IMG/VR virus record: IMGVR_UViG_2843020057_000001 | Coordinates: 74,516 to 138,515 of that record | Strand: one strand, 5' to 3' | Source of the DNA: a virus | Taxonomy: Duplodnaviria; Heunggongvirae; Uroviricota; Caudoviricetes | Length of the DNA stretch: 64,000 bases | Shown here: one piece after another, positions 1,219 to 63,181 of the stretch | Layout: the number at the start of each line of letters is the position of its first letter | How positions within the stretch are numbered: position 1 is the first letter of the stretch | Notes under the pieces: model-generated | Told to the model about the DNA's origin: nothing | What the model saw: the letters and a program-made list of their open reading frames with translations, nothing else | Database searches by the model: none | Position numbers and translations under genes: made by a program

Positions 1219-1285
1219 AATTAAAACCTCGTTTAATAGGAAAACGCTTATGATAAAATAATAAGGCAGGCAAGTTTCAAGGACG

Positions 1286-14180: not shown

Positions 14181-14183
14181 GGT

Positions 14184-24917: not shown

Positions 24918-24928
24918 TCCTTTCTTAC

Positions 24929-25879
24929 TTAATCACTTATCATTTCATTTTCAATTAATTCTCGGACATATTTTGAGATAATCTTATTTAATCGTTTGCG
25001 CGCCTTCTTCGCATCAAACAATTTCGGTGCATTGCTGCCTTCTTCTTCAATGACATCATTCCACAACGCATTGGCTAGTGGTCTAGCAATATCACCAAAA
25101 TGTTCAAAATCAATTACATCTGGTAAAAGATTTTCATCTTTAAACTTTTCAATCATTTTGGTAATGCGAGCTTCCGTAACTGTCTCATCAATGAACTTCT
25201 CACTTTCGGTCTGAGATGGCTGTGGTTTCTTTTGCTTTCGAGTTTCTTTAAACTTATCAGACACTACCTTTGCGCGAACGCCATCACATTCGATAACTAT
25301 TCCTTCGCCATGATCTGGTTCCTTTGTAATCATTGATCTTCCAACCATCGCATTAATGTCTTCTTTGGTTAAAGTGTAGTTTGCCATACTAACTACATTC
25401 GGCTGTCTTAACCCTACTCGATCGGCAAAAGCAGTACGTTCAAAGAAATTATATTCATGACCGAATAGATCATCATAAAAACTAAAGAAATACCAATGGT
25501 TGTACATTTTTTGTTGATATTCAACTCGATGAGATACCAGCCATTCCCCATAGAGATAGTCATGTGCCTCGTCAATATTCTTATAGAATTCCATTAACTT
25601 TGGAATTAAGACCTCTTGTGCGTATTCGTAAAAGCCTCGCAAAGTATTGTCCTCACTAAGTCTTTGACGATGTGAATAAATTGCAAAGTCAATTTTTCCG
25701 TCCCTTTTAAGAACCTCTATACAACTATTAGCACCATCAATCTTTTCAGTAGCAACATAGTAGTTACCTGCTTTATTCTGTTCTAAAAGACTGGCTACTC
25801 CTTCATGCTTCGAGTTTGCCTCTTCTTGCTCTAAACGGTAAATCTTAGGAAATTTACGATAAGTTAATTCCACGGCCAT
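24929..25879 (-). CDS. Rnl2-family ATP-dependent RNA ligase
   Basis: Nucleotidyltransferase motif I EKIDGAN (KxDG), motif III YGEW, IV EGIVIE, V KVVSDKF, collinear with T4 Rnl2. Start moved to MAVELTY, which has AGGAGG 7 nt upstream. The track start at 25918 lacks an RBS. Confidence 0.8.
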   Translation of the reverse strand: MAVELTYRKFPKIYRLEQEEANSKHEGVASLLEQNKAGNYYVATEKIDGANSCIEVLKRDGKIDFAIYSHRQRLSEDNTLRGFYEYAQEVLIPKLMEFYKNIDEAHDYLYGEWLVSHRVEYQQKMYNHWYFFSFYDDLFGHEYNFFERTAFADRVGLRQPNVVSMANYTLTKEDINAMVGRSMITKEPDHGEGIVIECDGVRAKVVSDKFKETRKQKKPQPSQTESEKFIDETVTEARITKMIEKFKDENLLPDVIDFEHFGDIARPLANALWNDVIEEEGSNAPKLFDAKKARKRLNKIISKYVRELIENEMISD

Positions 25880-26004
25880 CTTTCCTCCTCTTAAATTTTT
25901 GTATACAAAAAGCGTCACCAGATTCTAACTAATCTCGCAAAGTGACGCTTTATTTGTATGTCTCGTTATAAATACGTAATAAAGAATTTCGCTAATAATA
26001 GCTA

Positions 26005-26064
26005 TGAGGTAGATGGGAATCGAACCCATATCCTAGCATGATCTACCAATTGAACTACTACCTC
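26005..26064 (-). ncRNA. 60-nt tRNA-like element lacking a canonical anticodon arm (pseudo/armless tRNA)
   Basis: Perfect 7-bp acceptor GAGGTAG/CTACCTC+A. D-arm GTTC-AATTGGTA-GATC. T-arm ATGGG-TTCGATT-CCCAT. Only 10 nt (CATGCTAGGA) where the anticodon arm should be. Confidence 0.3.
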
Positions 26065-26303
26065 CGTTGATTTAGTATACATTCATCAACGTCCCAAAGA
26101 TCTTATCTCGGCTTCAATTTATCGGAAGTGGAACCTTAGACGCTACGTTTCCTATTTATAGACGGATACACGTCTTCTTCGTTATCATCCACTCTGCCGT
26201 ACACCTTCATTGTGTATGATTGAGCTACTCTAGCACATAATGTGACGATCAATCACGTGCCGGAGGCTGGACTCGAACCAACAACCTGATGATATTCCGA
26301 ATA

Positions 26304-26678
26304 TGGAGTAGACGGGAGTCGAACCCGTGTCCAACCAAATCAGTTTCCAAATACATTTTAGACTTATTAGGATTATGTACTTAACTCTTAAGCTTAGACA
26401 GTCACACAATCATTTTCCAAAGGCTACCTAAACCGATCTAGTTTTATTACTTCATCACAACCAAACTAGCAAACGGCGGACAAAGACCAGAGGGGTGAAA
26501 TATGATAGCTAATATCCTTATCTGGTATCAAAATATTAACCAAGTGCCTATAAGCTAGGCAGCTAAAGCTGTAACTCTATGGTTATTTGCTTTTATATTT
26601 AAATGAAAGTATTTCGGCGTTATCTTCCGTAAGTCGTATTTAGGGCTTTATTTGACTGTCGAATCCATAAACTACCCC
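26304..26678 (-). ncRNA. ssrA: tmRNA (ssrA), tag reading frame ending ...ALAA-stop
   Basis: 5' end GGGGTAGTTTATGGATTCGACAG matches the tmRNA consensus GGGG...GGAUUCGAC. Acceptor GGGGTAG/CTACTCC with G3:U70 and A73 (Ala identity). 3' T-arm ACGGG-TTCGACT-CCCGT. Internal frame GCA AAT AAC CAT AGA GTT ACA GCT TTA GCT GCC TAG (ANNHRVTALAA*). Confidence 0.8.
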
Positions 26679-26740
26679 AGAATAGAGCTTTAAATCATAG
26701 CTCCAAATAATAATTCAAATCGACTTCTTAATGAAGTCTA

Positions 26741-26812
26741 TAACACGTACAGGATTCGAACCCATATCTCCACATTACCATAGTGGTGCTTCCCCATTTA
26801 AACTAACGTGTT
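26741..26812 (-). tRNA. putative tRNA-Thr(GGU), unusual A1-U72
   Basis: Manual fold. Acceptor AACACGT/ACGTGTT+A. D-arm GTTT/AAGC. Anticodon stem CCACT/TGTGG (one mismatch), loop ATGGTAA. T-arm ATGGG-TTCGAAT-CCTGT with wobbles. Confidence 0.45.
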
Positions 26813-27169
26813 ACTTATATATCAAAATATTTCTTGTGGTGGAACCCCTAACAGCTTTTGCCTTATTCCACATTTGTTCCTACTAGCTTCATAGGATGGG
26901 CATAGTCCTTATCCCTGCTAAGGGGCGCTGTCGTTACTCGCTGAATGTTTTGATATGTTCTTGTTAAGGGAGACCCATTTCGAGACCTTAACATCGCTAA
27001 CTTAGAAATCTCCTTTGTTCCTAATGCTAAAGACCGCGGGTGTTTCGGAACTCAGCGAAATTTCACTATTAACTGGTGATCAACCCCACTCACGGATTCC
27101 GCACATGCCTACGCTCCGTCAGCGAATATTGTACCTGTCTTTTATAAAATCCTGATTTTAAAAACAGGA

Positions 27170-27242
27170 TGGACCTTGCAGGACTCGAACCTACGACCGA
27201 GCGGTTATGAGCCGCCTGCTCTACCAACTGAGCTAAAGGTCC
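27170..27242 (-). tRNA. tRNA-Ile2(CAU, lysidine type) / Met-CAU
   Basis: rc reads GGACCTTTAGCTCAGTTGGTAGAGCAGGCGGCTCATAACCGCTCGGTCGTAGGTTCGAGTCCTGCAAGGTCCA. Cloverleaf is canonical. Sequence closely resembles Firmicutes tRNA-Ile(LAU). Confidence 0.85.
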
Positions 27243-27514
27243 AAAATGATAGACCATAAACCGCAAACTTGTCTATCCGTGAGCGTTTAATCCAATCTCA
27301 TATTTGCAACTATGTTTTCGGCAACTAAGCTCACAAGTATAAATGATTACTGCTGACACCAATGATCATTCATATCTGCTGACTCGATAGATGAATATCG
27401 TTACGACTGTGTCAGGTCGCCGTGTTACACCTAACAGGCGGAGGTTGTTTTAGTTAATTAATGTGTGCTTTTTAATTTTCACTGGCACGCAGTAGCACAT
27501 TTAAGGAACTGCAA

Positions 27515-27586
27515 AGCGGTTAACGAGACTCGAACTCGCGACAACAGCTTGGAAGGCTGTGGTTTTACCAGTTAAACTATAACCGC
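27515..27586 (-). tRNA. tRNA-Trp(CCA)
   Basis: rc GCGGTTATAGTTTAACTGGTAAAACCACAGCCTTCCAAGCTGTTGTCGCGAGTTCGAGTCTCGTTAACCGCT. Anticodon stem ACAGC/GCTGT, loop CTTCCAA. Confidence 0.85.
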
Positions 27587-27781
27587 ATTAGAGAGGTGAT
27601 TTATTTATATTCGCAGCTACACCCCACTGCTATCACATGCCAACAATACTAGGCATCCTACCCTACCCTCGTGTTGACTTCGAGACACCAGTTTTACAGT
27701 CTATGTTTCCAAGAACACACTGGATTTACTCTCCGCTCCGTTAAGTGAAATACAATTCTAGCGACGGCACACTAGAACCAA

Positions 27782-27855
27782 CTGCGAATATCGGATTTGA
27801 ACCGATGACACAAGGTTTAACAGACCTCTGCTCTAACCAACTGAGCTAATTCGCA
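27782..27855 (-). tRNA. tRNA-Asn(GUU)
   Basis: rc TGCGAATTAGCTCAGTTGGTTAGAGCAGAGGTCTGTTAAACCTTGTGTCATCGGTTCAAATCCGATATTCGCAG. U1-A72 and G73 as in bacterial tRNA-Asn. Anticodon loop CTGTTAA. Confidence 0.85.
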
Positions 27856-28360
27856 AAATTTAGAGAACACGATTAATCACTTCATATTCTCAAAGTAACA
27901 AGGATAGTTGATTAGTCCTATCGCTGAGGCGCACATTTAAGTACGTTGCTCTCCTTTACATACCAACCACTACATTCAAAGCGTTGACGCTTGCTACTCT
28001 AACTGCCCAGGACAGGATTCGAACCTGCTACCTCAGGGTCAATGTTTTTCAACACGCGCGTGTATCCCTGCGCTCTCGCCAAATATTTCGAGCTACCTAG
28101 ACGTAATAATGTCCACCCAGAAACGTTAGATAGTGAACTAATAAGTTAAGAGCTTGTTGACTGTGCTAAGTATCAGTCTGATTACTCTTAGAGCTTATAT
28201 CTTTTTATGGACATTGACTTAGCAATTCTGTCCGCGATTAATCACTACTATTTCTAGTAGATACCTTCGCATTGCGAAGATGTGGCCTATAACTAGGCAA
28301 ATCATTTTCAGACAGTTCAGTCGATCTTAAGCTGACCATTCTATAAAGAACTATCTGAAA

Positions 28361-28415
28361 TAGTCCTGTTGGGAATCGAACCCAATTAATCTTCCTAGTA
28401 CCATCAGACAGGACT
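28361..28415 (-). ncRNA. 55-nt armless tRNA-like element
   Basis: Perfect acceptor AGTCCTG/CAGGACT+A and T-arm TTGGG-TTCGATT-CCCAA. Only 25 nt between acceptor and T-arm. Shares a CTAGGA core with the 26005-26064 element. Confidence 0.25.
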
Positions 28416-29186
28416 CCAAACATAATACATGTATTTTTTCGTTACACCATCTTTAACGTGCGTGTTGAAAATTGTTACTAAAAGTCGCCGACACGGGACT
28501 ATCTTTCCGAAACCACAATTTAGGGGAGTGGCAATCCCGACAATAAATGTCGATTAAGGAGTCAAAGCTCCACGTTAATCTGATTAATCTTTAACAAGAC
28601 AGCCTCTTTCTTATCTGTCATACCTATTTCTTTTGCATTCTCTGAGCACGTGCTCTCTTGAACACCGAGGTGGGTAATTATGCTGTATTTCGAAGCCCTA
28701 CGTGAGCCGTAATCAGATTATATAAATAAGTTTATTATCTTATCGCTGTTACAACAGCAATTTAAAGATGGAAAACTTTATAAAAGAAGCATTTTACTAA
28801 CAGAAGGCATAAACTGTCATTCTTCCCACTAGCGGTCAGAACTTTTTCTAGACTGCTTTTTTATTTTTCAAATACTCCCGCCAATAACTAGTATGACTTG
28901 CAATCTTGTATTTGTATTATTCAGGGTGTAGATTACCAGAGCACCCGAACCTGCAACCCGAGAATTAAACTCAGCATTAACTTAGGCAATATCTGCATCG
29001 CAGGTAGTCGCACACGCAACCATAGCAATAAGAAGCGTGGCATCAATCACATTACGAGCATTAGAAACTCCTCCAGTTGTGAGTAGGATACCTCGTATAA
29101 ATCACATTACTGCCATTTATACTCAAGCGCTTCAACCGACACACCTGTTGCCGGTTTCCCTATTATACATATCCATATAACAGAAA

Positions 29187-29269
29187 CACCTAGAGAGGGA
29201 TTTGAACCCCCGAACCCGAAGGAACGGTTTTGGAGACCGTCGCGTTTGACCAGACTTCGCTATCTAGGT
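29187..29269 (-). tRNA. 83-nt type-II-like tRNA with anticodon loop CTCCAAA (CCA) and 12-nt variable region
   Basis: Acceptor ACCTAGA/TCTAGGT+G (7 bp perfect). Anticodon stem ACGGT/ACCGT perfect. Variable region TCCTTCGGGTTC with a UUCG-like mini-hairpin. T-arm GGGGG-TTCAAAT-CCCTC. Confidence 0.4.
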
Positions 29270-29424
29270 ATTAATAACGTGCCATGCCAGCGTAAACACG
29301 TTATTAGATCGAATTGAAAAATGTAAAGGTAAAGGTATATGGAAAACATAACCTATTGAACATACGTTAGGTGTTTTTACATTCCAAACGTTTTCCGTCA
29401 TTTGAAACAACCTATTGCTAGGAA

Positions 29425-29493
29425 TTTCGGCAATGGGAATCGAACCACATATCTACACCGCACAATGTTGCTCTACCATTGAGCTATGCCGAA
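29425..29493 (-). ncRNA. tRNA-like element with irregular anticodon arm (possible pseudo-tRNA)
   Basis: Acceptor TTCGGCA/TGCCGAA+A perfect. Canonical D-arm GCTC-AATGGTA-GAGC. T-arm with one bulge. Only 18 nt for anticodon arm plus variable loop. Confidence 0.35.
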
Positions 29494-48460: not shown

Positions 48461-48763
48461 CTAGTAATCGTTCATTAATTCATCAATACTACTTTCAATA
48501 CTTTCCTCTATAGCTGTTGAAATATGTACACCATTATCTTCAATGCAAGTTACAACCCATTCTGCTACAGCAATAATTCGCTCATCACTTACTAGAATAC
48601 TTTCTTCATTTAACTCGTCTACAATCATTTCCTCAAAATCGTCAATCGTGACATCGTCATCATTCTTACCTTCGCCAAATTCTTTAAGTGCTGTTTGTGC
48701 TTGAAGTAGTGCTTCTGCTAATTGTTCTTGAATTTCAACCTTAACCATAATAATTTCCTCCAA
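48461..48763 (-). CDS. small highly acidic protein (DNA-mimic-like candidate)
   Basis: ~30% D/E. No family recognised. Confidence 0.35.
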   Translation of the reverse strand: MEEIIMVKVEIQEQLAEALLQAQTALKEFGEGKNDDDVTIDDFEEMIVDELNEESILVSDERIIAVAEWVVTCIEDNGVHISTAIEESIESSIDELMNDY

Positions 48764-48789
48764 TTCTTACCTTTTCTAAAATATCTGTT

Positions 48790-49035
48790 TTACCAAACTG
48801 CGTTATTAGTTAATTCAATAATTCTCGGCTGACAACCTTCATCTTGCATTCTCCACGAATTCTTATCATCTTGAGACACTTTATCGTATAATTCGTTACA
48901 TTCTCTTAATGTGTCTTTGATATATTCCATCGCCTTTTCATATGTGGTAAAAACCATTGTGTCAAAAATTGATTCTTCCATATCTCTGTCTAAAACTACA
49001 TATACTGAATTTGGTAAAGTTTCCATTTTATTCAC
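48790..49035 (-). CDS. hypothetical small protein
   Basis: ORF. Confidence 0.3.
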   Translation of the reverse strand: MNKMETLPNSVYVVLDRDMEESIFDTMVFTTYEKAMEYIKDTLRECNELYDKVSQDDKNSWRMQDEGCQPRIIELTNNAVW

Positions 49036-49166
49036 ACTCCTAGATTTACTTTTAATGACTGATTTCTCTCGAAAAATTTCTCCACACTCTTAACTTTGTT
49101 TTCTAATATCAAATACATCAACGAAGCCCCATGTTTTACTTAATTCTGACTTAACCAACCTTTCTT

Positions 49167-49388
49167 TTAATCAATGTAAGTTAAATTTGTATCCTCAGGA
49201 TCATTTTTTGAAATGATCATGCAGTAATCAGAATTACGCACAAAAACGGGGTCAATTAAAACATCTTTGTTGTAATCATAAAATTTCCTGCACACATCAA
49301 TTTCTCCTGCTTGATATGTAGCTGCATTTAACTTCAATTGTTGAAATTCTTCAATGGTGAGCGGCTCAAAATCTTCTAATGTTAGCAT
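49167..49388 (-). CDS. hypothetical small protein
   Basis: ORF. Confidence 0.3.
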   Translation of the reverse strand: MLTLEDFEPLTIEEFQQLKLNAATYQAGEIDVCRKFYDYNKDVLIDPVFVRNSDYCMIISKNDPEDTNLTYID

Positions 49389-49417
49389 TCTTCTTCACAC
49401 TACTAAATTTCTTTTTT

Positions 49418-49936
49418 CTAATACAAGTAATCACGGTATTCAACCGAATCATCATTAATCAAATCTAAATCAATATTTCCATTTTCATCAGTTGCGCTTT
49501 TAATAATTTTTGCTTTATTTTCTCGATATGCTTGCTTTAATACTTTAATCCAACGCTTCGGGTGAAGTGCTTCATCTAGCAGTCTTTCACTGTACTGGTC
49601 GATAGGCGCCTTTTCATCAACCGCTTGGTAAACAGTGTCTAATTCATAATCAAAAGCATTGCCCTGTTCTACTGGGTTACAAAACAAGTCAAAATAAAAG
49701 TCCCATAGTACACATGCAATAAATTCTCCCTTAACAGTCTTTTTTTCACGGTACTTATCAGCATAATGTGTAAGCACTGAATCAAATGTAACCCCTGCAC
49801 TAATGAATTTTCTCCGTTGTTCTGGTGTTGCATCATGCCAAGCCTTACTCTTAACTAATTCATTAACACTAAATGGTAGTAAATTTGTATCAATCATCAT
49901 TTTATTCACTCTCCTAAATTTATTTTCTAATATCAA
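49418..49936 (-). CDS. hypothetical protein
   Basis: ORF. Confidence 0.35.
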   Translation of the reverse strand: MILENKFRRVNKMMIDTNLLPFSVNELVKSKAWHDATPEQRRKFISAGVTFDSVLTHYADKYREKKTVKGEFIACVLWDFYFDLFCNPVEQGNAFDYELDTVYQAVDEKAPIDQYSERLLDEALHPKRWIKVLKQAYRENKAKIIKSATDENGNIDLDLINDDSVEYRDYLY

Positions 49937-50108
49937 ATACTATGGAATTTTTCTCCATCTCGTCCAAACCAAATAAGTATTGCCAATCTGGATTAATTTT
50001 CACTACATTCATTGACTTATCAAAGTAACAATAATCGCCTTGACTTTCCTCAAACTTAATCATGTCTTTCCCATTCATCCAAATTGGCTCCATCTTACTC
50101 AGCCTCCT

Positions 50109-50384
50109 TTATTTATTCATTAGTTCGTTCAAGTCAACTGAAATTCTTTTTGGGTCTGATAATTCATTTAACTCTTGTTCCCAAATCTCAATTGACCCTA
50201 CAAGATCATCATCAAATTCATCAGTATCCTCTAAATAATTATTGAATAGCAGCCAATTCTTCAATAATTCTTTTGCCTTATTCAATGAAGTTGCACTAGT
50301 AACATAATCTGATTTACTATCCCAAAATCCCTGTTCATCCACGATTACTACACTGAAAATCTTTTGTTTCTCCATTTTACTCAC
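50109..50384 (-). CDS. hypothetical small acidic protein
   Basis: ORF. Confidence 0.3.
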   Translation of the reverse strand: MSKMEKQKIFSVVIVDEQGFWDSKSDYVTSATSLNKAKELLKNWLLFNNYLEDTDEFDDDLVGSIEIWEQELNELSDPKRISVDLNELMNK

Positions 50385-50406
50385 TCTCCTGAATTATTTT
50401 CCTAAC

Positions 50407-50625
50407 TTAAAATAGCAGTGTTTCTTTCTTAAATTTCCAACCATGCTTTTCAAATTCGTTCATTATCATTTCTGTATCATCGGCATTGTAGTTATACAGG
50501 AATTGTTTCCAATTACTAATTCCCAAACTATTCAATACCTTGATTAACTTCTTCTTGTTAAACCAACATTGATATACGTTGCTTCCTTCTTCCCAGGTAA
50601 CTAATTCCATAAACATAGCTTTCAC
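50407..50625 (-). CDS. hypothetical small protein
   Basis: ORF. Confidence 0.3.
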   Translation of the reverse strand: MKAMFMELVTWEEGSNVYQCWFNKKKLIKVLNSLGISNWKQFLYNYNADDTEMIMNEFEKHGWKFKKETLLF

Positions 50626-50903
50626 TCTCCTAAAATTTCTTTTTCTTCTAACTGTTGTACTTTATATCCAATATTCTCTAATGTTTCAATTGCCTCGGCT
50701 GTTGTCATTTCTAAACCAATTCCAAATGATTCGCCCCACTTTTTTAATTCCTGTTCATTAACTCGCTCTCTAAATCCATCTGCTGTGTCGATTAAATATC
50801 GCAATCTAAAATCACCACCTAAATTTCTTTTAGTACAAACGAATAGGGCAAACCAAACCAAGCCCACCATTTTCTCGTGAAATTGTGAATGGACGGTAAG
50901 CAT
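50622..50903 (-). CDS. hypothetical small protein
   Basis: ORF. Overlaps the next gene by ~70 nt. Confidence 0.25.
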   Translation of the reverse strand: MLTVHSQFHEKMVGLVWFALFVCTKRNLGGDFRLRYLIDTADGFRERVNEQELKKWGESFGIGLEMTTAEAIETLENIGYKVQQLEEKEILGE

Positions 50904-51687
50904 TTTGATAGAATCTAAATGTTAGATTTTCTCGACTACTAAGATATTGTAAACGTTGCTTTAATTTCTTCACGTTGAAATTAATCTCAAACTCATCATT
51001 TACCACTATATTAGTTACAGCAATTGGAAATTCTAAATCTTTTTCCCAGTTAGAATACTTAAGTTTCACCACATTATCTTTTACCAAAAGTGCCACTACT
51101 TCAGTTTTCTTTACTTCTTTGAACTCTTTTGTTAATCCAGGCTTATTAACGATTTTTACTATTTCTTTCAACACTGGAAAAATTTCTTTTTGTTGTACAT
51201 CAAACTTAACGGTTGCATCATTAAGGTATGGTGTAACTCGTACTAAATCTGGATAACCAAACACACTTATATTTTCTCGGCTGTCATCAATAAATTCTTC
51301 ACCACCGCCAACGATTGAAATAATTCCCTTGTACTTTCCATCATTAAATTGAGGGTAAACTCCCAATGTCTTCCCGTATTTCGTCGGTGTCTTAGATAAA
51401 TTCTTTGCAAACTTACCATCAATTAAAAATTCTTTACCAACTAACTCATCTGGAATACTTGCTGCTACATTTGCTCGCTCCAGTACATGGCTATCAGTTG
51501 CTTCTAAAATCAAATTATTTTCTGTAATCCGAACATGAACAAATGTAAGGTTGGGACGATGGTCAGATGGCTTAGCAACAGCAGTCGCCACTTGTCGTAA
51601 TTCTTTCAAAAATTCTTTTGCATTTACAAAAATACCGTTATCTTTATTAATAGTTGCTACGTTGTTTAATAGTGTTTGTGTATTCAT
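50830..51687 (-). CDS. hypothetical protein, possibly sliding-clamp (DnaN)-like
   Basis: N-terminal region LTFVHVRITENNLILEATDSHVLE resembles the beta-clamp domain-1 pattern. Only 285 aa. Weak. Confidence 0.3.
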   Translation of the reverse strand: MNTQTLLNNVATINKDNGIFVNAKEFLKELRQVATAVAKPSDHRPNLTFVHVRITENNLILEATDSHVLERANVAASIPDELVGKEFLIDGKFAKNLSKTPTKYGKTLGVYPQFNDGKYKGIISIVGGGEEFIDDSRENISVFGYPDLVRVTPYLNDATVKFDVQQKEIFPVLKEIVKIVNKPGLTKEFKEVKKTEVVALLVKDNVVKLKYSNWEKDLEFPIAVTNIVVNDEFEINFNVKKLKQRLQYLSSRENLTFRFYQNAYRPFTISRENGGLGLVCPIRLY

Positions 51688-51749
51688 GATAATTACCTCT
51701 TAATAGTGAATTTATTTTTAATGGTGGATTTGTTAATAAAATTTCTTTT

Positions 51750-52022
51750 CTATGCAACTTTTACAATCTCTAAATAATCTAGTTCAATTTCACAAGGCTC
51801 TGTTTCGTTAGGGTATTCATCATCGCCAATCCACTCTGCAATATAGTGTCCCTTTAATTTCATTCCCCACATATCAATGGCAAACTCACAAAATTCTCCA
51901 TCGGGAATATCTGAATTATGCTCGTTATCAATTGCGCACCAAAAATCACAATTAAACTTATCAATATTTTTCTCCGTGACAATTCCGCGACTTTTCTCAA
52001 TAACCAAATCATTCCAGCTCAT
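51750..52022 (-). CDS. hypothetical small acidic protein
   Basis: ORF. Confidence 0.3.
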   Translation of the reverse strand: MSWNDLVIEKSRGIVTEKNIDKFNCDFWCAIDNEHNSDIPDGEFCEFAIDMWGMKLKGHYIAEWIGDDEYPNETEPCEIELDYLEIVKVA

Positions 52023-52044
52023 TTTGATTTCCTCCTAAAATTTC

Positions 52045-52311
52045 TTAATTCTCGAACAATACGCAGAAGTCGTCCGCTGTTTTGTCAATATATTCCTCAG
52101 CAAACTCAACCTCATCATCAATTTTCTTTCCATTGAGTGATGGTAGCCCCTCGCCACTCAACCAATCGTCAAATTCATCTGCTGTCAAAACAGTGGACAT
52201 TAATTCCTCAATACCCTGGCAAAAGATGGTTTCGTCCTTGCCATCCACAATAAAATTCAGAATGTAGCAATCAGCCGGGATTGCGTCAATTCCTGCAAAT
52301 TTGATTATCAT
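52045..52311 (-). CDS. hypothetical small acidic protein
   Basis: ORF. Confidence 0.3.
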   Translation of the reverse strand: MIIKFAGIDAIPADCYILNFIVDGKDETIFCQGIEELMSTVLTADEFDDWLSGEGLPSLNGKKIDDEVEFAEEYIDKTADDFCVLFEN

Positions 52312-52368
52312 GATAATTACCTCTTAATAGTGAATTTATTGTTAATAGTGTTTTTGTTAGGATAATTT

Positions 52369-52662
52369 CTAGTATTCTGAACGACGTAAACCTAGGTAAA
52401 AACATTTTCCATCTGCTGTTTTTCCGAATGACTTATATAGATAATTTCCGTCATCATCTTGGTCGTATTCTTCACCAACACAAAATGTTTGAATAAATTT
52501 AATACCTAATTGACTCTCTAAAATTTCTTTTGTCACTTCCTCTAATGGATATGGTGGCAAAACACAGTACATATCAGAATAGATTTCATGTTCAACTTCT
52601 TGAAATAACTGTGGAGTTAATTCGCCATCTTTATTCCAATCTTTCATCGTATAAATACTCAT
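52369..52662 (-). CDS. hypothetical small protein
   Basis: ORF. Confidence 0.3.
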   Translation of the reverse strand: MSIYTMKDWNKDGELTPQLFQEVEHEIYSDMYCVLPPYPLEEVTKEILESQLGIKFIQTFCVGEEYDQDDDGNYLYKSFGKTADGKCFYLGLRRSEY

Positions 52663-52737
52663 TTCTATTTCCTCACTTTCACAAATGCTGTTATATCAAC
52701 GTTTTCAAGACTAAAATTTCTTTCTAAAATGTCTGTT

Positions 52738-52992
52738 TCACAAATTAGCAATAAATGCTCGTACATCTTCATCATCAAACAAAGTTGGTTTATAGCCACT
52801 GATTAACTCACCATCTGGGTCAAGAATGTCGTAACTAACTGGCTTGCTGTCGTCAATCCAGGTATCTATAACTTCGCCTAAATTGTCTCCCATGTCTTCC
52901 TCTAAGTTATCTAAGTTGACTTCGTGGGTTTCAACGACCGGTACTTGAGCGTTAATGGTATATCCCTTTTGTACAAATTCCTTTAATTCCAT
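52738..52992 (-). CDS. hypothetical small very acidic protein
   Basis: ORF. Confidence 0.3.
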   Translation of the reverse strand: MELKEFVQKGYTINAQVPVVETHEVNLDNLEEDMGDNLGEVIDTWIDDSKPVSYDILDPDGELISGYKPTLFDDEDVRAFIANL

Positions 52993-53068
52993 TTTCTATT
53001 TCCTCACTTTCACAAATTCCGTTATATCAACGTTTTCAAGACTAAAATTTCTTTATAAAATACATGTT

Positions 53069-53413
53069 TTATAATTGAACTAAACTTAGTTTTTCTCGTA
53101 CAATTTCATCTTTAATTCTTTCAGCTTTTTCCCATACGCTGTCGCTGTCTGGATATTTATATTCTGCTGACTTAATAGCCTGTACAATTTCGGTGTAGTA
53201 ATTGGAACAACCTGTACTTCTGTACCACTCTTTTACTCCACCCATTAAATCAATCTGACTTTGTGGCTGCTGCTTAATTTCTTCAATTTGTTGCATATCA
53301 ATTTCAATACTTGATAGCAAACATTCTTTCATTTTTTCTAACTTACTCATTTTTAATATTCTCCGTTCTAATAGTGTTATGCGACTAATTCTTTTTCTCG
53401 TTTCACTGAACAT
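53069..53413 (-). CDS. hypothetical protein
   Basis: ORF. Confidence 0.3.
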   Translation of the reverse strand: MFSETRKRISRITLLERRILKMSKLEKMKECLLSSIEIDMQQIEEIKQQPQSQIDLMGGVKEWYRSTGCSNYYTEIVQAIKSAEYKYPDSDSVWEKAERIKDEIVREKLSLVQL

Positions 53414-54000
53414 TCATAATCAATTGACAAGTCAAAGTCTTGAATAATTCCATTCAGCATATCCAAGTCGTCATCTTCTAAATATCCGACTGGTGTATAA
53501 ATATTTTCTTGATCGTTGTAATATCCAACTGTTCCAGTTGCCAAATCAATTGCTCCGTCAATACGTGCCCAACCAGTGTTTGAAAACCCTAGTAAATAAT
53601 GCTTTTTAGACTTGTCGTAAATCAGACAATCACATTCATTAATAACTGAATAATCACAATATTTTACATACACTTGGTTTTCTCCGACACGTTGAATTAA
53701 TTCAATTTCTTCTCCGTCTACGTCAATATATTGATTTTCTAAAAATTCTTCTGTTAATTCCTTTAATTCTGCTTCGTCAACTGACCATGGATACCATTCT
53801 TCGATTAATTGAGATAATTCAGCAATTGTTTCATACGAACCAACCTTGTTCCACAAAATTCCCATGTCCCAACTTTTTTCTAAAATTACTCCAATTTCAC
53901 CGTTTACTTTTTGCATGATATTTACCCCCGTGATTTTCTTTTCCATCTTGATTTTCTCCAATTCTGTAATTTTTAATACTGGGCACCAATTAGCCACCAT
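53377..54000 (-). CDS. hypothetical protein
   Basis: ORF. Confidence 0.35.
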   Translation of the reverse strand: MVANWCPVLKITELEKIKMEKKITGVNIMQKVNGEIGVILEKSWDMGILWNKVGSYETIAELSQLIEEWYPWSVDEAELKELTEEFLENQYIDVDGEEIELIQRVGENQVYVKYCDYSVINECDCLIYDKSKKHYLLGFSNTGWARIDGAIDLATGTVGYYNDQENIYTPVGYLEDDDLDMLNGIIQDFDLSIDYECSVKREKELVA

Positions 54001-54245
54001 TTACTTCCAGGTAAATCTTCATCATCTCTCCAATTTTCTGACTGGCTATCAATGAATGAACGATAATCACTATCGTTTTCATATTGTTCCCGATCGACTT
54101 CCTCACAACCAATTGCTCCATATTCGTAACCTAAATAACCGGCATTTACGATTTTTGTTGCTAATTCCTCATCACCACTAACTTCCCACTGTACCAACCA
54201 ATCGAATAAGGCTTTTTGTGTTTTCGTCCAAACTGATTTTTCCAT
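53973..54245 (-). CDS. hypothetical small acidic protein
   Basis: ORF. Confidence 0.3.
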   Translation of the reverse strand: MEKSVWTKTQKALFDWLVQWEVSGDEELATKIVNAGYLGYEYGAIGCEEVDREQYENDSDYRSFIDSQSENWRDDEDLPGSKWWLIGAQY

Positions 54246-54283
54246 TTTCTATTTCCTCGCTTTTCCAAAATTTCTTTTTATTC

Positions 54284-54655
54284 CTACCAATTAGGAAAAA
54301 TATATTTTTCTTTCACGATTGTTCTTTTAACTGCTGGATTAGCACAACCAATATTGACCAATTCTCGTTTTTCTACACTTTCACCATCTTCTTGTGGATA
54401 GGCGAAAATTTGAATATCATCTAATTCTTCATCTGTTAATTGTTCCCAATATTCAAGCAATTCATTTTCGTCATAAAACCCTTCAAGTTCATTACCGAAC
54501 CAATCGCAAACACTGAAATACCAGGATTTGCGAATTAACTCACCATCAAAGTAGTCATCTGGCTTAATCCATTTGAAGGTAACGGGATAATTTTCTCGGC
54601 GATAGTGTAATTTTTTCATGATAATTTTCTCCTCAATTATTTCTTTTCTAGTCAA
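54284..54655 (-). CDS. hypothetical acidic protein
   Basis: ORF. Confidence 0.3.
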   Translation of the reverse strand: MTRKEIIEEKIIMKKLHYRRENYPVTFKWIKPDDYFDGELIRKSWYFSVCDWFGNELEGFYDENELLEYWEQLTDEELDDIQIFAYPQEDGESVEKRELVNIGCANPAVKRTIVKEKYIFPNW

Positions 54656-55005
54656 CCTTTGTTAATTCAATTTCTCCATTGGCTACCGCTTCAATAATCC
54701 ACGGATAATTTTCAAGTAATACACGGCCACGGATATGGTCAACACCGCCTCCATGTGTTCCCTTGTAATCAACTCGGTATAATTTCGTTTTGAAGATACG
54801 CATTTTTATTTCCTCCGTTCTATGAAAAATTATTTTTGTTCAATACCTTTGAGTTGACGAATAATTTTCGCTTCGCTCATCATTACCTTGTAATTTGAGT
54901 TGGCTTCTTGTGCTGAATGCACCCAACCCCCAAAGCATACAAGTGCGATAATAGCAAGCATTACAATTGCAATATTTTTCTTCATGATTATCTATCCTCT
55001 GTACT

Positions 55006-55530
55006 TTATAGATTTTCTTCTTTGAATTGACTAATGATTTCATCGGCATGATTGTTAAGCATTTCTTGATAGTCGTATTCGGTCATGCTTTCACAATTAC
55101 CGCAACCGTTAATAAAGATGTAAGGATCAAGCCAATTGTGAATATCGCCAAAGAACACGGCTCGCGCTACTTCTTGCCGTGATGAAAACATGGTGTCAAA
55201 GAAATCATCATCAAAATCGTATACATCCTCACAGCCGGTTGCTTCACGATCATCTAGGGCGTTGTATACATCCTCGATAGTGTCATAGTCCTCGAGTGCT
55301 TCGGCTAATTCATTCAGAGCGTATAAGTTGTCGTATTCACCAATCTTGAAAGGTGCTTCATAATCACTGATAAACCATTCATCGTGGTAACCTTGCTTGC
55401 TATCACCGCCCAGGTCTAACTTGTCCAAAATATCCTTGTTCACATCATCAACTGGCAAAGTTGTCCATTGTCCAGTAAGTTCACCATCGTTGTACTTCGC
55501 TAAGTTTGAAACAAATACTTTAATTTCCAT
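55006..55530 (-). CDS. ardA: ArdA antirestriction protein (DNA mimic, anti-Type I R-M)
   Basis: N-terminus VFVSNLAKYNDGELTGQWTTLPVDD aligns with Tn916 ArdA VYIANLGKYNEGELVGAWFTFPID. ~170 aa and highly acidic. Confidence 0.75.
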   Translation of the reverse strand: MEIKVFVSNLAKYNDGELTGQWTTLPVDDVNKDILDKLDLGGDSKQGYHDEWFISDYEAPFKIGEYDNLYALNELAEALEDYDTIEDVYNALDDREATGCEDVYDFDDDFFDTMFSSRQEVARAVFFGDIHNWLDPYIFINGCGNCESMTEYDYQEMLNNHADEIISQFKEENL

Positions 55531-55603
55531 GATATTTACCCCTTTTTATAATTATATTTATTTTCATTCTTTATTTACTTGTGATTAATAGTGTAAGATT
55601 ACA

Positions 55604-55807
55604 TTAGTTTAGCAAGTTCGTCAATAGTGCCCGTAAAAGTGGGAGGGTCACTGCAATAACAATAACTGCAATGAATGCAGCTAAAATACTGTACTTCTTA
55701 AACTTGATTAGTTTTTTGCTATCCTGTTCTAATTGCTTAATGTATTCTGGATCAACCAACTTGTAATCCTGTTCTGCGTATTTTTGTAGTTCTTTTTGTG
55801 ACATCAT
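55604..55807 (-). CDS. small membrane protein, first gene downstream of the promoter array
   Basis: C-terminal TM helix. Confidence 0.3.
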   Translation of the reverse strand: MMSQKELQKYAEQDYKLVDPEYIKQLEQDSKKLIKFKKYSILAAFIAVIVIAVTLPLLRALLTNLLN

Positions 55808-56343
55808 AATATCAAAACCCTTCTAATTTATTTCAGCGGTTGTTATTAATCGCTTTATATAGAGTCTTATCGTGTTGATAAGGCTCTCTAAAAACAATTA
55901 ATAGTGTCTTTTTCACTTTCATAGGCTTAAACCAAGAATATTAGCAAGTCCCTACTGGTAGTATCACGGTGCCTTTATCTACTATTGATTAGGCGGTTGA
56001 CGTGGAATCACCTACCCCTACCGTACCGGGTTATTTACCAACTTTTGATATTGCGGAGTTGTTCTCAGTTCTACTGAAAGATTGAACCGCGGTTATTAAG
56101 TTTTCAAAGGTCAACGCCCTGATTTTTCGCGTGTCTGTCACCCGCGCGGGTTCCCGTGACGAATTTTAACCTAATGATAGTCTGATATATGGTGTTTCCC
56201 TTGCATTGAACCCTATCCGATATGATGGTCTAGTTATGGTTCGCGCCCCCACCTTTTTCGTGGGCTATCAGTCCCGTGGTAAGTTTTTCGACTTTCAAGG
56301 TCAGTTTTTTGAATTGGTAGCTTTCCAATGTAATCTGAACATT

Positions 56344-56373
56344 TTTATATAGACTTAAGTCTATATAAATCAA
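56344..56373 (-). promoter_or_regulatory. promoter P1 (minus strand, TTGATT-18-TATAAA) with 22-bp perfect palindrome in spacer
   Basis: rc reads ggTTGATTtatatagacttaagtctaTATAAAaa. Confidence 0.5.
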
Positions 56374-56428
56374 CCTTTTGTTTGTTAATCGCTCAAGGTT
56401 TGCGATTGCTTGTTTCTTTACGGCTTTT

Positions 56429-56705: not shown

Positions 56706-56740
56706 AATAAAAAAAACAATAGTAAATGAATACTATTGTT
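56706..56740 (-). terminator. rho-independent terminator of the small ORF 56733..56960
   Basis: Minus strand aacaatagta-ttcatt-tactattgtt followed by ttttttttatt. Confidence 0.55.
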
Positions 56741-56960
56741 GTAAGTCTTTTAAGCGTTGTTCAATATCAGAATGTAATTCTTTTAAGTCGTCAATGTATT
56801 GTAAACGATTTTCGTTAATTGCCTGCGATAGTTTAGTAGACTTTTTAAGATTAACATTAATAAAACCGCGCGCCTGACCCTTGCGGTCCCAGTATGTTTT
56901 TTTCAGTGGATTTTCAGCACGATATTTTTTTGTCGCTTCCTTTTGTGCCTCGCTTACCAT
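56733..56960 (-). CDS. small basic protein, candidate DNA-binding regulator of the palindromic operators
   Basis: 75 aa and K/R-rich. Preceded at 56975-57000 by a partial copy of the repeat unit, with TATAAT at 56994-56999 and a half palindrome. Confidence 0.4.
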   Translation of the reverse strand: MVSEAQKEATKKYRAENPLKKTYWDRKGQARGFINVNLKKSTKLSQAINENRLQYIDDLKELHSDIEQRLKDLQQ

Positions 56961-57040
56961 TTACTCACCCCCTTTTTGTATAGCCTTAAGACTATTATAA
57001 CATACTTACAACCCTAACAGAATATAAAAATAATACCCCT

Positions 57041-57715
57041 TTTTATTTTTATATAAGGAAAGAAAAAAATAATAATGGTATTGATATATATGTATATATG
57101 TATGTATGTATATGTATATGTATGATTGAGTAAGTGAGTGATATATATGTATATGTATATATGTATGTATATGTATGTATGGTTATGTATGTATATATGG
57201 TTGTATATATGGTTGTATATATGTATGTATATATGTATGTATATATGTATATATGTATGTATGTATATGTATGTATATATGTATGTATGGTTGATTGAGT
57301 GAGTGATTGAGTGAATAAGTGAGTTAGTAAGTGAGTGAATAAGTGAGTGAGTGTATGTATGATAACGCTTTCATATGTTATTGTATGATGGATCAAATGA
57401 ATATGTATATGTATTGAGTGAGTTAGTAAGTGAGTTGGCTGGTAGGGTAAACGGTTGTTTATTATATAAGGGGCGTGGATTGAGTTATTAAGTGAGTGAG
57501 TAAGTGATATATATTATTGTGTTTGTTTGATGTGTTTGGTTTATTTGGTCGGTGGTATGGTGTGAGTGTAGTGTAGTGATTAATTAGTGAGTTTGGTTGG
57601 TAGGGTTATTGTGTTAGGTTGGTTGGGAGTGGGTTGGGTAAATATATAGTTTTTTATTATGGTTGGGGGTGTGTTTATTATTATGTTTGTTTGGTGTGAT
57701 AGCTGATTACTATAT
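57041..57715. repeat. ~675-bp strand-asymmetric low-complexity region: top strand essentially C-free, built from (TATG/TGTA)n and (GTGAGTRA)n microsatellite-like repeats and G/T-rich GGTTGG tracts
   Basis: Direct count gives ~11 C residues in ~675 nt. Repeats tatgtatgtatatgtatatg..., gagtgattgagtgaataagtgagt..., ggttggtagggtt...ggttgggagtgggttgggt. Confidence 0.85.
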
Positions 57716-58218: not shown

Positions 58219-58539
58219 CTATATTCTCTTTACATATTCGTTTAAACAAATTATCAATTCAACATCTAATCCATCCATATAGTCATCATATACAGCAGAA
58301 TAATCATCATCAAATTGACTCAAAACATATAATAATACTCCGTTATATATCCTATCAGGACACCTTATTATCCCTTGAATTAATGTCATACTTTCCAATA
58401 AATTATCTTCATATGTTTCTCTGTACTCTTTTTGCAATAGATAATTTAAATACCAGATTAGATCATTGTCTCTATCCTGTCCAATTATATTTATTAGCTT
58501 TTTCACCACTATATTAATGATAGAATTACTGCTGCCCAT
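58219..58539 (-). CDS. hypothetical protein
   Basis: ORF with plausible composition. Only gene in the ~3-kb non-coding block. Confidence 0.35.
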   Translation of the reverse strand: MGSSNSIINIVVKKLINIIGQDRDNDLIWYLNYLLQKEYRETYEDNLLESMTLIQGIIRCPDRIYNGVLLYVLSQFDDDYSAVYDDYMDGLDVELIICLNEYVKRI

Positions 58540-61988: not shown

Positions 61989-62333
61989 TTACCCGTTTTT
62001 TAGAGATTTTGACATAAAATCTTTCTCTTCAAGAATTGAGACCATTTTTTCTAACCTAGTTATTTGACTATCATCCAAAGAGGCTTTTTCGGTTTCAATT
62101 AAATGATTAAGCAAGGCTTTCATATTTTTTTCAATTCCTAAATTTAATAATGCAGATAACTCATTTCGAATATGGTTATCCGCTCTTATATTCGCCGGAA
62201 ATGTTACAGATAATACTTGAGGTTCTTCTTTCTCGTTAACTATATCTTCTCTCTTGACTTTATTCCTTACAGAAACTCTTGATCCAGCCTTAAGTTTGGG
62301 TTTCTTTTGTTCCTTTGAATGAGTAAGAGCCAT
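61989..62333 (-). CDS. small centromere-binding ParB/ParG-like protein
   Basis: Downstream of parA with ATG/TAA overlap. N-terminal basic region. Confidence 0.45.
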   Translation of the reverse strand: MALTHSKEQKKPKLKAGSRVSVRNKVKREDIVNEKEEPQVLSVTFPANIRADNHIRNELSALLNLGIEKNMKALLNHLIETEKASLDDSQITRLEKMVSILEEKDFMSKSLKNG

Positions 62334-63181
62334 TATTCTTCAACTCCAATCTTTTTAACTAATTCTTTGGCAACTTCCTTGTATTTATTTTGTGCTCTCT
62401 GATCCCAAACATCATGTGGCCCATCGGTAATTCCAGTTATATCCATACGCTTTACACGTTCCATAAGTCTTATATGATTCTTGAAAACATCATCGCCCCA
62501 CATTTCTTTTGCCTTTTCCAAAATTACCTTATCTACTGCTGCGCCCTTTTTAGAAAGAACTGGAAGTACACCAATAACAACAACATCAGAATCAAACTCA
62601 TCAATTATAGTTGTTTGAATATATTCAACTAGATCTTCAGCTCCATCTAAAGAATGTTGCTGGGTCTGTAAAACAATTATAATGTCATCACAAGCGTAGT
62701 ATGCCGTATCATTTTGTAGACTTAACGTTGGAGGAACATCAATAAAAATAAAATCATATTTTCCTCTCAAATCCCTGTTGATTAGTTTTGAAAGGAATCC
62801 AACCTTATCTTGTTCTGATTTAAAATTATTTTCTAAGTATCGTCCATATAAAGAAAAATCAACTGCATTTGGAATCAAATAAAAATCCTTGGCAATCTCA
62901 ATGACCGTCTTCTCAAGATTCTCATTTTTCTTTATAGCATTCATCAATGTGTTATCAATAACTTCAATCTCATCATCATTTTTACTCTTTGTCTTTAATA
63001 ACAACGAAGTCATATTTGCCTGTGGGTCCAGATCTATTACCAAAGATTTATACCCCATTTTAGATAGATTATAAGCAACTAATGCCGTAGTTGACGTTTT
63101 CCCAACGCCACCTTTTTGGTTGCAAAAAGATATAACTTTAGTCTCCATAATTTTTGCTCCAATCATTTGTTCTAAATCCAT
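62333..63181 (-). CDS. parA: ParA/Soj-family Walker-type partition ATPase
   Basis: Deviant Walker A NQKGGVGKTSTTA. Confidence 0.85.
   Translation of the reverse strand: MDLEQMIGAKIMETKVISFCNQKGGVGKTSTTALVAYNLSKMGYKSLVIDLDPQANMTSLLLKTKSKNDDEIEVIDNTLMNAIKKNENLEKTVIEIAKDFYLIPNAVDFSLYGRYLENNFKSEQDKVGFLSKLINRDLRGKYDFIFIDVPPTLSLQNDTAYYACDDIIIVLQTQQHSLDGAEDLVEYIQTTIIDEFDSDVVVIGVLPVLSKKGAAVDKVILEKAKEMWGDDVFKNHIRLMERVKRMDITGITDGPHDVWDQRAQNKYKEVAKELVKKIGVEE

Follow-up and report, generated by a model that had tools for sequence, protein, structure and literature searches.

Between positions 48461 and 55807 of the stretch of DNA analysed here (referred to as the window, i.e. 64 kb of the viral record IMGVR_UViG_2843020057_000001, positions 74,516 to 138,515 of that record) lies an island of small genes. 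In the direction of transcription this island is preceded by a non-coding leader, by a bank of three perfect promoters that all face it and by a gene for a small basic protein, which we consider to be the candidate repressor of these promoters. The island comprises 21 open reading frames (ORFs) of 51-285 amino acids (aa), all on the minus strand. An earlier inspection of the letters alone (the sequence-only reading) had described a tight packing on that strand, which holds, but had put the number of ORFs at ~25 and their sizes at 60-200 aa, which does not. With the starts corrected against orthologues, 90% of the interval is coding, the median intergenic gap is 27 bp and a Shine-Dalgarno sequence is present at nearly all 21 ORFs; neither a convincing terminator nor a further perfect promoter was found inside the island.

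The encoded proteins are predominantly acidic: the isoelectric point (pI) is below 4.7 in 14 of the 21 (median 4.34), as compared to 7% of the 45 other proteins of the window (Mann-Whitney p = 2.6e-4 for island versus rest), and the five ORFs that had been named as acidic beforehand indeed have a pI of 4.05-4.63. In a comparison of seven related elements the ratio of non-synonymous to synonymous substitutions (dN/dS) was found to be 0.04-0.42 in every island family with enough divergence. A joint HMMER search with ten of the ORFs against a library of 1.84 billion proteins yielded homologues for all ten, in 128 clusters, the named members of which are all 'hypothetical' and derive from Limosilactobacillus or metagenomes. 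Because of these dN/dS values and the homologues for all ten ORFs searched, the island ORFs are, judged by their sequences, real genes; a reading as non-coding or junk ORFs is ruled out by the dN/dS values.

The second gene of the island (55006..55530, minus strand) encodes a 174-aa protein of pI 4.05 that is, by family membership, a bona fide ArdA antirestriction protein, as the sequence-only reading had proposed. The assignment is borne out by Pfam PF07275 (E 3.8e-16, 60.5 bits against a cut-off of 27, profile positions 1-109 of 155), by phrog_2059 'anti-restriction protein' (E 1.7e-13) and by the structure of Tn916 Orf18 (PDB 2W82, E 5.5e-10), to which residues ~2-92 could be aligned and the C-terminal half could not. 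Its composition (25% D+E, 6% K+R) gives it the charge expected for a DNA mimic.

Relatives and mosaic gene content

The island is present in six to eight Limosilactobacillus reuteri plasmids of PLSDB as well as in four IMG/VR contigs, and some island genes have homologues in phages. Seven elements together encode 136 island proteins, which fall into 45 families; two of these families occur in all seven elements and 16 in a single one, and the gene content of the island is highly mosaic between relatives. The gene for ArdA is present in six of the seven, its slot being taken by other genes in YLR001. An identical allele of the candidate repressor was observed to head one island without ArdA and one that starts with ArdA (L021, i.e. 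CP065541/YLR001, and L022, respectively). In the ArdA-less island the slot holds an acidic protein of 118 aa (motif GNGSGSYTF), which is a candidate for an alternative anti-restriction protein, together with two further genes without known family.

Three perfect promoters with palindromic spacers

The promoters P1 (56664..56692), P2 (56553..56581) and P3 (56429..56457), all on the minus strand, match TTGACA-17-TATAAT perfectly and face the island at mutual spacings of 111 and 124 bp. They are the only 12/12 matches to TTGACA-N17-TATAAT in the 64-kb window, whereas 0.09 would be expected by chance and none of 100 shuffles reached three. The sequence-only reading had placed a bank of tandem consensus promoters immediately upstream of the genes; the bank is there, with three perfect promoters, but a leader of ~620 nucleotides (nt) intervenes.

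Each of the three promoters sits in a 58-nt direct repeat and the spacer of each is filled by a palindrome of 16-20 bp (ATATAGaCTTAAGtCTATAT). In P1 a palindromic putative operator (ATATAGACTTAAGGCTATAT) extends across the spacer and the -10 hexamer, P2 carries the same putative operator and P3 contains a perfect 20-bp palindrome (ATATAGACTTAAGTCTATAT); the putative operator of the window element itself reads ATAGACTTAAGTCTAT. Outside the three promoters there are two further copies, both on the minus strand. The fourth putative copy (56342..56366), ~85 nt downstream of P3, is kept at the same relative position in all relatives and could constitute a roadblock or a weak fourth promoter (TTGATT...TATAAA). 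The other putative copy (ATAGTCTTAAGGCTAT; 56973..56997; repeat family D5) is two mismatches away from the consensus operator and overlaps the putative -10 of the promoter of the candidate repressor gene itself. An equivalent copy is found at the candidate repressor gene of the related locus L006, three mismatches away from the operator of that element.

A candidate repressor that varies together with the operators

The gene that precedes the promoter bank (56733..56960, minus strand) has a strong ribosome-binding site and encodes a basic protein of 75 aa (pI 9.6), a candidate autoregulated repressor. It evolves under constraint (dN/dS 0.16) and is nevertheless far more divergent than its neighbours, with 37-72% identity between relatives as compared to 95-100% for the 67-aa gene next to it and for the final 110 nt of the leader. 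Its homologues form 35 clusters, all from L. reuteri or metagenomes and all hypothetical, and in none of these clusters was a Pfam domain found. A profile built from six family members and searched against PDB did not find Reg576 (the repressor of the Bacillus pumilus plasmid p576 discussed below), and yielded only a marginal match to 8YE6 'A32' (E 0.034).

Nine relatives were compared, three of them IMG/VR contigs and six of them full-length plasmid loci, and all keep at least one promoter of this kind: perfect copies number 2-4 in seven of them and one in L009, and in L005 the only promoter has a shorter spacer. The inverted repeat in the spacer differs by element (TTATAACCACACAGTTATAA, TATAGCGTTCACGCTATA, TATAAGCTTAAGCTTATA, TATAACTTTCAAAGTTATA or TTATAACTTACGAAGTTATAA), and a count made in six loci gave 2-6 copies in each, with zero cross-matches between types. 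Pairs of candidate repressors that are at least 78% identical share their operator in 4 of 4 cases, pairs that are less than 75% identical in 0 of 32. Because the palindrome changes with the 75-aa ORF while the promoter hexamers stay perfect, the data point to a heteroimmune switch, in which the 75-aa protein would be the repressor and the palindromes its operators. Since an operator copy lies in front of its own gene, the candidate repressor would moreover be autoregulated.

A structured leader between promoters and genes

The non-coding leader (55808..56428, minus strand, ~620 nt) is richer in G+C than its surroundings and its RNA folds well, with a z-score of -4.6 versus shuffles; the promoters found are of the ordinary duplex consensus type and a hairpin promoter (Frpo/ssi-type) was not identified. 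By blastn, the leader was found only in six L. reuteri plasmids. Rfam contained no family matching it at E values up to 10, and a scan of the region from 55.5 to 58.3 kb returned nothing except spurious microRNA matches on a microsatellite; known non-coding RNAs such as ROOL and GOLLD are ruled out by this empty scan.

An alignment of nine sequences revealed the following order within the leader: a conserved 5' hairpin (AATCGC/GCGATT), the fourth operator copy, a second conserved hairpin, a central module of ~200 nt with three unrelated versions, a 3' part with two versions, and a last stretch of ~110 nt that hardly varies. The first hairpin can be paired in all nine sequences and shows one compensatory change (G-C to A-U), with a covariation that is statistically weak (57 of 500 shuffles). 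The loop of this 5' hairpin (56370-56420) is complementary to a downstream tract, and in three relatives the two stretches are swapped (CCTT..AAGG to AAGG..CCTT), so that they still pair. Hairpin and tract may together fold into a pseudoknot where the early transcript begins.

The island resides on a phage-plasmid

Proteins identical to the ParA (62333-63181) and to the candidate repressor of the window are encoded on NCBI contig JBQAPQ010000002.1 (GCA_051911155.1, 138,515 bp), where genes for RepA_N, HU, YonG_N and YonD_N follow directly; the latter two are virion genes of the SPbeta type. The related element FN041 (a 'plasmid' of 128.8 kb) encodes a terminase, a tape measure protein of 3,035 aa and a holin, and further a primase, a PHP-domain polymerase, a ligase and a thymidine kinase. 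In the window itself the minus strand holds almost everything from 8 to 55.8 kb. This array includes Phd/Doc and PemK toxin-antitoxin genes, directly after the island, an integrase, and a phage-type replication/recombination module (DnaB-like helicase, AAA_24 ATPase, metallophosphatase and RecD2-like helicase). The plasmid maintenance genes ParM/ParR and ParA/DUF5388 are located to the right of the island.

Relaxase, coupling-protein and type IV secretion system (T4SS) families were absent from the 14-64 kb scanned with Pfam and from the first 14 kb as judged by the translations and the annotation of a relative. All eight related plasmids were typed as non-mobilizable by MOB-suite, which scores relaxases and known origins of transfer (oriTs). 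Because virion genes are present, the relatives are typed as non-mobilizable and relaxase and T4SS were not found, the element, which measures ~138 kb and of which the window is a part, is to be classified, on its gene content, as an SPbeta-like phage-plasmid of L. reuteri and not as a conjugative plasmid. Four smaller relatives (52-98 kb) have lost the phage modules and have kept the rep, par, switch, island and toxin-antitoxin genes. We found no paper on L. reuteri phage-plasmids or on a repressor switch of this kind.

The sequence-only reading had recognized in the island the architecture of an anti-defence or early region, of the type described for leading regions of conjugative elements and early regions of phages. 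The architectural part stands, given the promoter bank, ArdA and the co-oriented small acidic genes, and the functional idea was reasonable. The conjugative framing was wrong, for the reasons just given, whereas the alternative of a phage early region fits, in the form of a phage-plasmid. The most informative features (i.e. the typed switch, the leader and the phage-plasmid context) are situated just outside the interval from 48461 to 55807 to which that reading referred.

A proposed repressor-gated entry operon

In its architecture, with a strong promoter bank followed by ArdA, a string of small acidic ORFan genes and distal toxin-antitoxin modules, the region corresponds to an early or establishment island. 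With a probability of roughly two in three, we take the region to be the repressor-gated entry (early/establishment) operon of an SPbeta-like L. reuteri phage-plasmid. In an established cell, the 75-aa protein would bind the palindromes in the spacers of the three tandem sigma-A promoters and keep the operon silent, and it would also limit its own synthesis via the operator at its own gene. Upon entry of the DNA into a cell without the 75-aa protein (most plausibly by phage injection, and in the case of the reduced plasmids by whichever way they spread) host RNA polymerase would fire from all three promoters. Transcription would run through the structured leader, and a burst of synthesis would then yield the 67-aa membrane protein, ArdA, ~18 small and mostly acidic proteins and a protein that resembles the beta sliding clamp, all 21 genes presumably being co-transcribed. 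ArdA, as a DNA mimic, would block type I restriction-modification (R-M), the other early proteins would target defence systems or the host and the clamp-like protein may have a part in early replication, until newly made repressor has accumulated and the promoters are closed again. At the evolutionary level, accessory genes would be exchanged between relatives like cassettes and the repressor/operator pair would have diversified into several specificities (i.e. heteroimmunity), with the operator types allowing related elements to coexist without cross-repression or causing them to exclude each other.

Several observations weigh against this proposal. ArdA is the only known anti-defence gene in the island. 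For the other genes an anti-defence or host-takeover role is a supposition, and at least one of them, the clamp-like one, resembles replication machinery. The small relatives without virion and phage-replication genes keep the island, and its function is therefore not tied only to phage infection. For the 75-aa protein no recognisable helix-turn-helix (HTH) or ribbon-helix-helix (RHH) signature and no Pfam or PDB relative was found; the argument that it binds DNA is made from co-variation and position. Finally, the repressor-operator pairs are phylogenetically non-independent and the correlation over them (rho 0.41) is only indicative.

The strongest competitor, though in our view a rather unlikely one, is that the island represents an immediate-early 'host-takeover' module of the lytic cycle, with the 75-aa protein as the master repressor of the phage-plasmid. 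Upon induction or infection, transcription from the bank would then cover the island and perhaps the entire 48-kb minus-strand array with its replication, tRNA and nucleotide genes, and the acidic proteins would mainly redirect RNA polymerase, replication and division rather than hit defence systems. Such a module would agree with the use of one strand for almost everything from 55.8 kb to about 8 kb, with the presence of a clamp-like replication gene inside the island and with the similarity of the heteroimmune repressor types to phage immunity regions. In SPO1-type phages the host-takeover genes are located next to the terminal repeat, and the homologue of the 189-aa island protein in phage LfeInf has the same location, with a short clamp gene close by. 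Nevertheless, the plasmid-only derivatives that have lost the phage replication and virion modules keep both switch and island under purifying selection, the function of ArdA is anti-defence and not takeover, and toxin-antitoxin genes and an integrase separate the island from the replication genes.

Less probable still is that the island belongs to the leading region of a conjugative or mobilizable plasmid and serves in anti-defence, in which case it would enter first as single-stranded DNA (ssDNA) beside oriT and be expressed early. ArdA, the toxin-antitoxin modules and the co-oriented small ORFs match the islands described for such regions (PMC11541004), the maintenance genes ParM, ParA and RepA_N adjoin the island, the derivatives without phage genes retain it, and an oriT could have escaped recognition in a 2.3-kb non-coding stretch or in the structured leader. 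Against this stand the lack of relaxase, coupling-protein and T4SS matches over the ranges given above, the non-mobilizable typing of all eight related plasmids and the virion genes on the full-size relatives, and the promoters found are of the double-strand sigma-70 type instead of hairpin promoters that act on ssDNA. It is highly improbable that the array of palindromes and promoters is a plasmid maintenance site (a centromere or copy-control site bound by a small protein of the omega or ParR kind), the island being a set of passively hitch-hiking ORFans, as its distance of 3.5 kb from parMR, the proximity of parA and repA, the very variable gene content and the analogy with inc18 plasmids (where small basic proteins on repeated promoter-near sites are centromere binders and regulators) are outweighed by the palindromes lying exactly within the spacers of perfect promoters, all of them directed towards the island, by the purifying selection on the ORFs and their homologues in other elements and phages, and by the fact that the par loci have their own partners (DUF5388 with ParA, a 113-aa gene with ParM).

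The entry-operon reading can be extended to a bolder proposition that is tentative, and that we would sooner expect to fail than to hold in full: a typed (heteroimmune) repressor switch of a new family may gate a cassette-exchanging operon in the SPbeta-like phage-plasmids of lactobacilli and in their plasmid-only descendants. The 40-plus ORFan families of the operon might then include several counter-defence or host-takeover proteins with new folds, and the modular ~620-nt leader might be a regulatory element of a new kind, acting as RNA or as DNA, which may correspond to the EGeRS1 regions discussed below.

Comparison with known systems

A close parallel in regulatory logic is offered by plasmid p576 of B. 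pumilus, where the small repressor Reg576 acts on its own promoter and on the strong promoters of anti-restriction and variable establishment genes (PMC6294495, PMC8708921). The published model involves a transient derepression after the DNA enters a repressor-free cell and the gene content is mosaic; Reg576 is an RHH protein that binds dual TTATCCC heptamers flanking the promoter (PMC6294495, PMC8708921). The systems are alike in the operator-bearing strong promoters, in the operator at the repressor gene (here predicted from sequence) and in the mosaic genes. They differ in that p576 is conjugative, whereas the window element is a phage-plasmid in which no relaxase was found; in that the 75-aa protein has no detectable similarity to any solved structure and its palindromes lie inside the promoter spacer; in that three promoters are here stacked on one operon and those of p576 are spread over four operons; and in the anti-restriction gene, ardA here and ardC in p576. 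Plasmids of the pLS20 family carry EGeRS1 regions, inverted-repeat-rich sequences of 400-600 bp before the establishment genes with an unexplained mechanism (PMC8708921). The ~620-nt leader recalls EGeRS1. The EGeRS2 regions (of clade II of the pLS20 family) belong with the Reg576 type.

Similarities extend in the direction of phages. In the strictly lytic phage T7 the tandem promoters A1, A2 and A3 for the host polymerase are followed by gene 0.3, which encodes Ocr. Both systems have three strong tandem sigma-70 promoters ~110-125 bp apart, a leader, an early anti-restriction gene for a DNA mimic and small early genes; the T7 promoters, however, have no repressor or operators, Ocr and ArdA are unrelated in sequence, and the present replicon persists as a plasmid. 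Large phages of Bacillota (e.g. the terminal-redundancy module of SPO1, and SPbeta-like phages) have ~20 small genes behind strong host-type promoters, and are integrating or virulent. The present island resembles these clusters in that one of its proteins has an LfeInf homologue in the equivalent region and in that the element has virion genes of the SPbeta (Yon) type. It differs by the plasmid backbone of RepA_N, ParA and ParM, by the typed candidate repressor and by its survival in derivatives without phage genes.

With the leading-region islands the element shares co-oriented small genes, ardA, toxin-antitoxin genes, many families of unknown function and a proposed early expression, but those islands are set by the position of oriT and relaxase and often use ssDNA promoters of the Frpo type (PMC11541004), neither of which was identified here. 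The anti-CRISPR operons that Aca proteins repress in phages and plasmids likewise combine a strong promoter, counter-defence genes, a small repressor and operators overlapping the promoter (the latter predicted in our case), yet Aca is an HTH protein encoded downstream in the operon, whereas the candidate repressor is the product of a separate upstream gene of an unrecognised family (PMC8708921).

The 'burst, then shut-off' logic that is known from one conjugative Bacillus plasmid and from anti-CRISPR operons would, if we infer correctly, also operate on a phage-plasmid of a gut and food lactobacillus, and it would involve a repressor family that has gone unrecognised and is split into several specificities. 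The ~45 families of small proteins form a bounded, regulated and coding set that can be screened against restriction, CRISPR, abortive infection and host functions in Lactobacillaceae. To our knowledge, few counter-defence proteins are known in Lactobacillaceae, and a low transformation efficiency limits their genetics. ArdA and its neighbours could thus be practical tools for the delivery of DNA into L. reuteri, and the promoter/operator sets, provided that repression is as proposed, would be ready-made, orthogonal and tightly repressible strong promoters for lactobacilli. The context, too, is little described: a 130-140-kb SPbeta-like phage-plasmid with tRNAs and transfer-messenger RNA (tmRNA), together with its degraded plasmid derivatives.

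The individual genes of the island

The genes are described in the order of transcription, all on the minus strand. The first one (55604..55807) encodes the 67-aa protein, which has a C-terminal transmembrane helix, is 95-100% conserved in all relatives (dN/dS 0.11) and has no family match in Pfam, PHROG or NCBIfam. After ArdA follow two genes of 51 aa (54830-54985, with an N-terminal hydrophobic segment in the product, and 54648-54803), an acidic gene of 111 aa (54284-54619) that is present in all seven relatives, and a gene of 90 aa (53973-54245, pI 4.1). For these four there was no match in Pfam, NCBIfam or PADLOC, nor to a PHROG with an assigned function. The next gene (53377..53946) encodes the acidic 189-aa protein (pI 4.1) with a 44%-identical homologue in the virulent herellevirus LfeInf, which lies two genes away from the short 'DNA pol III beta chain' gene of that phage.

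The following five genes encode products of 93 aa (53069-53350), 84 aa (52738-52992), 97 aa (52369-52662), 88 aa (52045-52311) and 90 aa (51750-52022). Four of the five have a pI of 4.05-4.34, the exception being the near-neutral 93-aa protein (pI 7.7 as a longer 114-aa ORF, family mean 5.8). The 88-aa protein has a homologue with a fused LPD1 'large polyvalent protein' domain, and the 97-aa protein recurs as a domain within proteins of 200-360 aa. Two pairs of intergenic repeats are located just upstream of four different island genes, one of 82 nt (90% identical; 52662-52743 and 52993-53074) and one of 63 nt (89% identical; 51684-51746 and 52308-52370). These repeats may be recombination joints for cassette exchange, or shared signals for translation or processing.

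The largest product, of 285 aa, is the two-domain protein that resembles the beta sliding clamp (50830..51687). It matches phrog_947 'DNA polymerase processivity factor' (E 1.7e-9) and phrog_6615, and aligns only to domains II-III of the beta clamp (residues 129-377 of 377 in PDB 7EVP). It cannot be taken for a three-domain bacterial DnaN, as it has two domains only and its scores are below the thresholds of both Pfam DNA_pol3_beta_2 (E 3e-5, 24.7 bits, cut-off 27) and TIGR00663 (21 bits, threshold 138). We consider it, on these similarities, to be probably a replication factor and not an anti-defence protein. The gene is present in six of the seven relatives and is retained even in plasmid derivatives without phage polymerase genes; with two domains, a ring would need to form differently from that of the three-domain bacterial dimer. 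The island ends with eight genes without family match in Pfam, PHROG, PADLOC or NCBIfam: one of 60 aa that is found in all seven relatives (50622-50804), three small ones (50407-50625, 50109-50384 and 49920-50093), one of 160 aa (49418-49900), two more small ones (49167-49388 and 48790-49035) and one of 95 aa with 29% D+E (48461-48748).

Among all members of the island, a family was recognised only for ArdA and the clamp-like protein. Apart from these two, nothing was found for the island proteins in Pfam, NCBIfam, PADLOC or the PHROGs with a function, just two further families being present in PHROGs, where their function is unassigned. Pfam yielded nothing for ten further island families from the relatives, and nothing for 72 distant homologues apart from isolated fusion-partner domains. 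A sequence search of PDB with the island proteins gave no match except for ArdA and clamps, and profile searches of two island families against PDB sequences gave nothing significant. The search for Ocr, ArdA, ArdB, KlcA or Acr folds that the sequence-only reading had suggested turned out negative for the two island proteins that were modelled, as neither of these confident AlphaFold models matched a solved fold. Megablast against phage genomes gave no match, and tblastn against phages gave LfeInf, a clamp and some ArdAs as the only matches. An anti-CRISPR family was not detected among the island proteins, and PADLOC returned no match for any of them at E values up to 0.01, which rules out a reading as an anti-phage defence island.

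Other features of the window

Between the switch and a conserved ORF of 106 aa (58219-58539) there is the gene-free stretch of 2.3 kb, which contains tandem repeats of 12 bp at 57085-57353 and at 57481-57627 (TATATATGTATG, 17 times, and TGAGTGAGTAAG, five times) and a local reversal of the GC skew. It may function as an origin, as a centromere or as a packaging site.

Within the minus-strand array, a 4-kb cluster (26005-29953) contains 8-9 tRNA genes and a tmRNA gene (26304-26678; 80.7 bits with Rfam, tag ANNHRVTALAA), and is positioned between a block with RNA ligase and deoxynucleoside kinase and the gene for PnuC. The salvage set to which these belong consists of the nicotinamide riboside transporter PnuC, a nucleoside 2-deoxyribosyltransferase, the deoxynucleoside kinase and the RNA ligase (30915-31718, 18121-18615 and 24120-25918); it could also serve to counter defences that deplete nicotinamide adenine dinucleotide or nucleotides.

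Further to the left, and likewise in this array, the element encodes a type III R-M system of its own (mod 14184-16274, res 11190-14180), which adjoins a helicase-like gene (8023-9915) and an uncharacterised gene of 436 aa, and lies near an Mrr-like endonuclease (5833-6771). The R-M block as a whole (8023-16274) is ~80% identical to blocks on plasmids of L. paracasei, L. plantarum and L. kefiranofaciens. Finally, the accessory left end holds a match to the Listeria small RNA rli28 of Rfam (1244-1420, plus strand; 48.1 bits versus a gathering threshold of 45, E 0.007), near the position of a 'holin-like toxin' annotation in a related plasmid.

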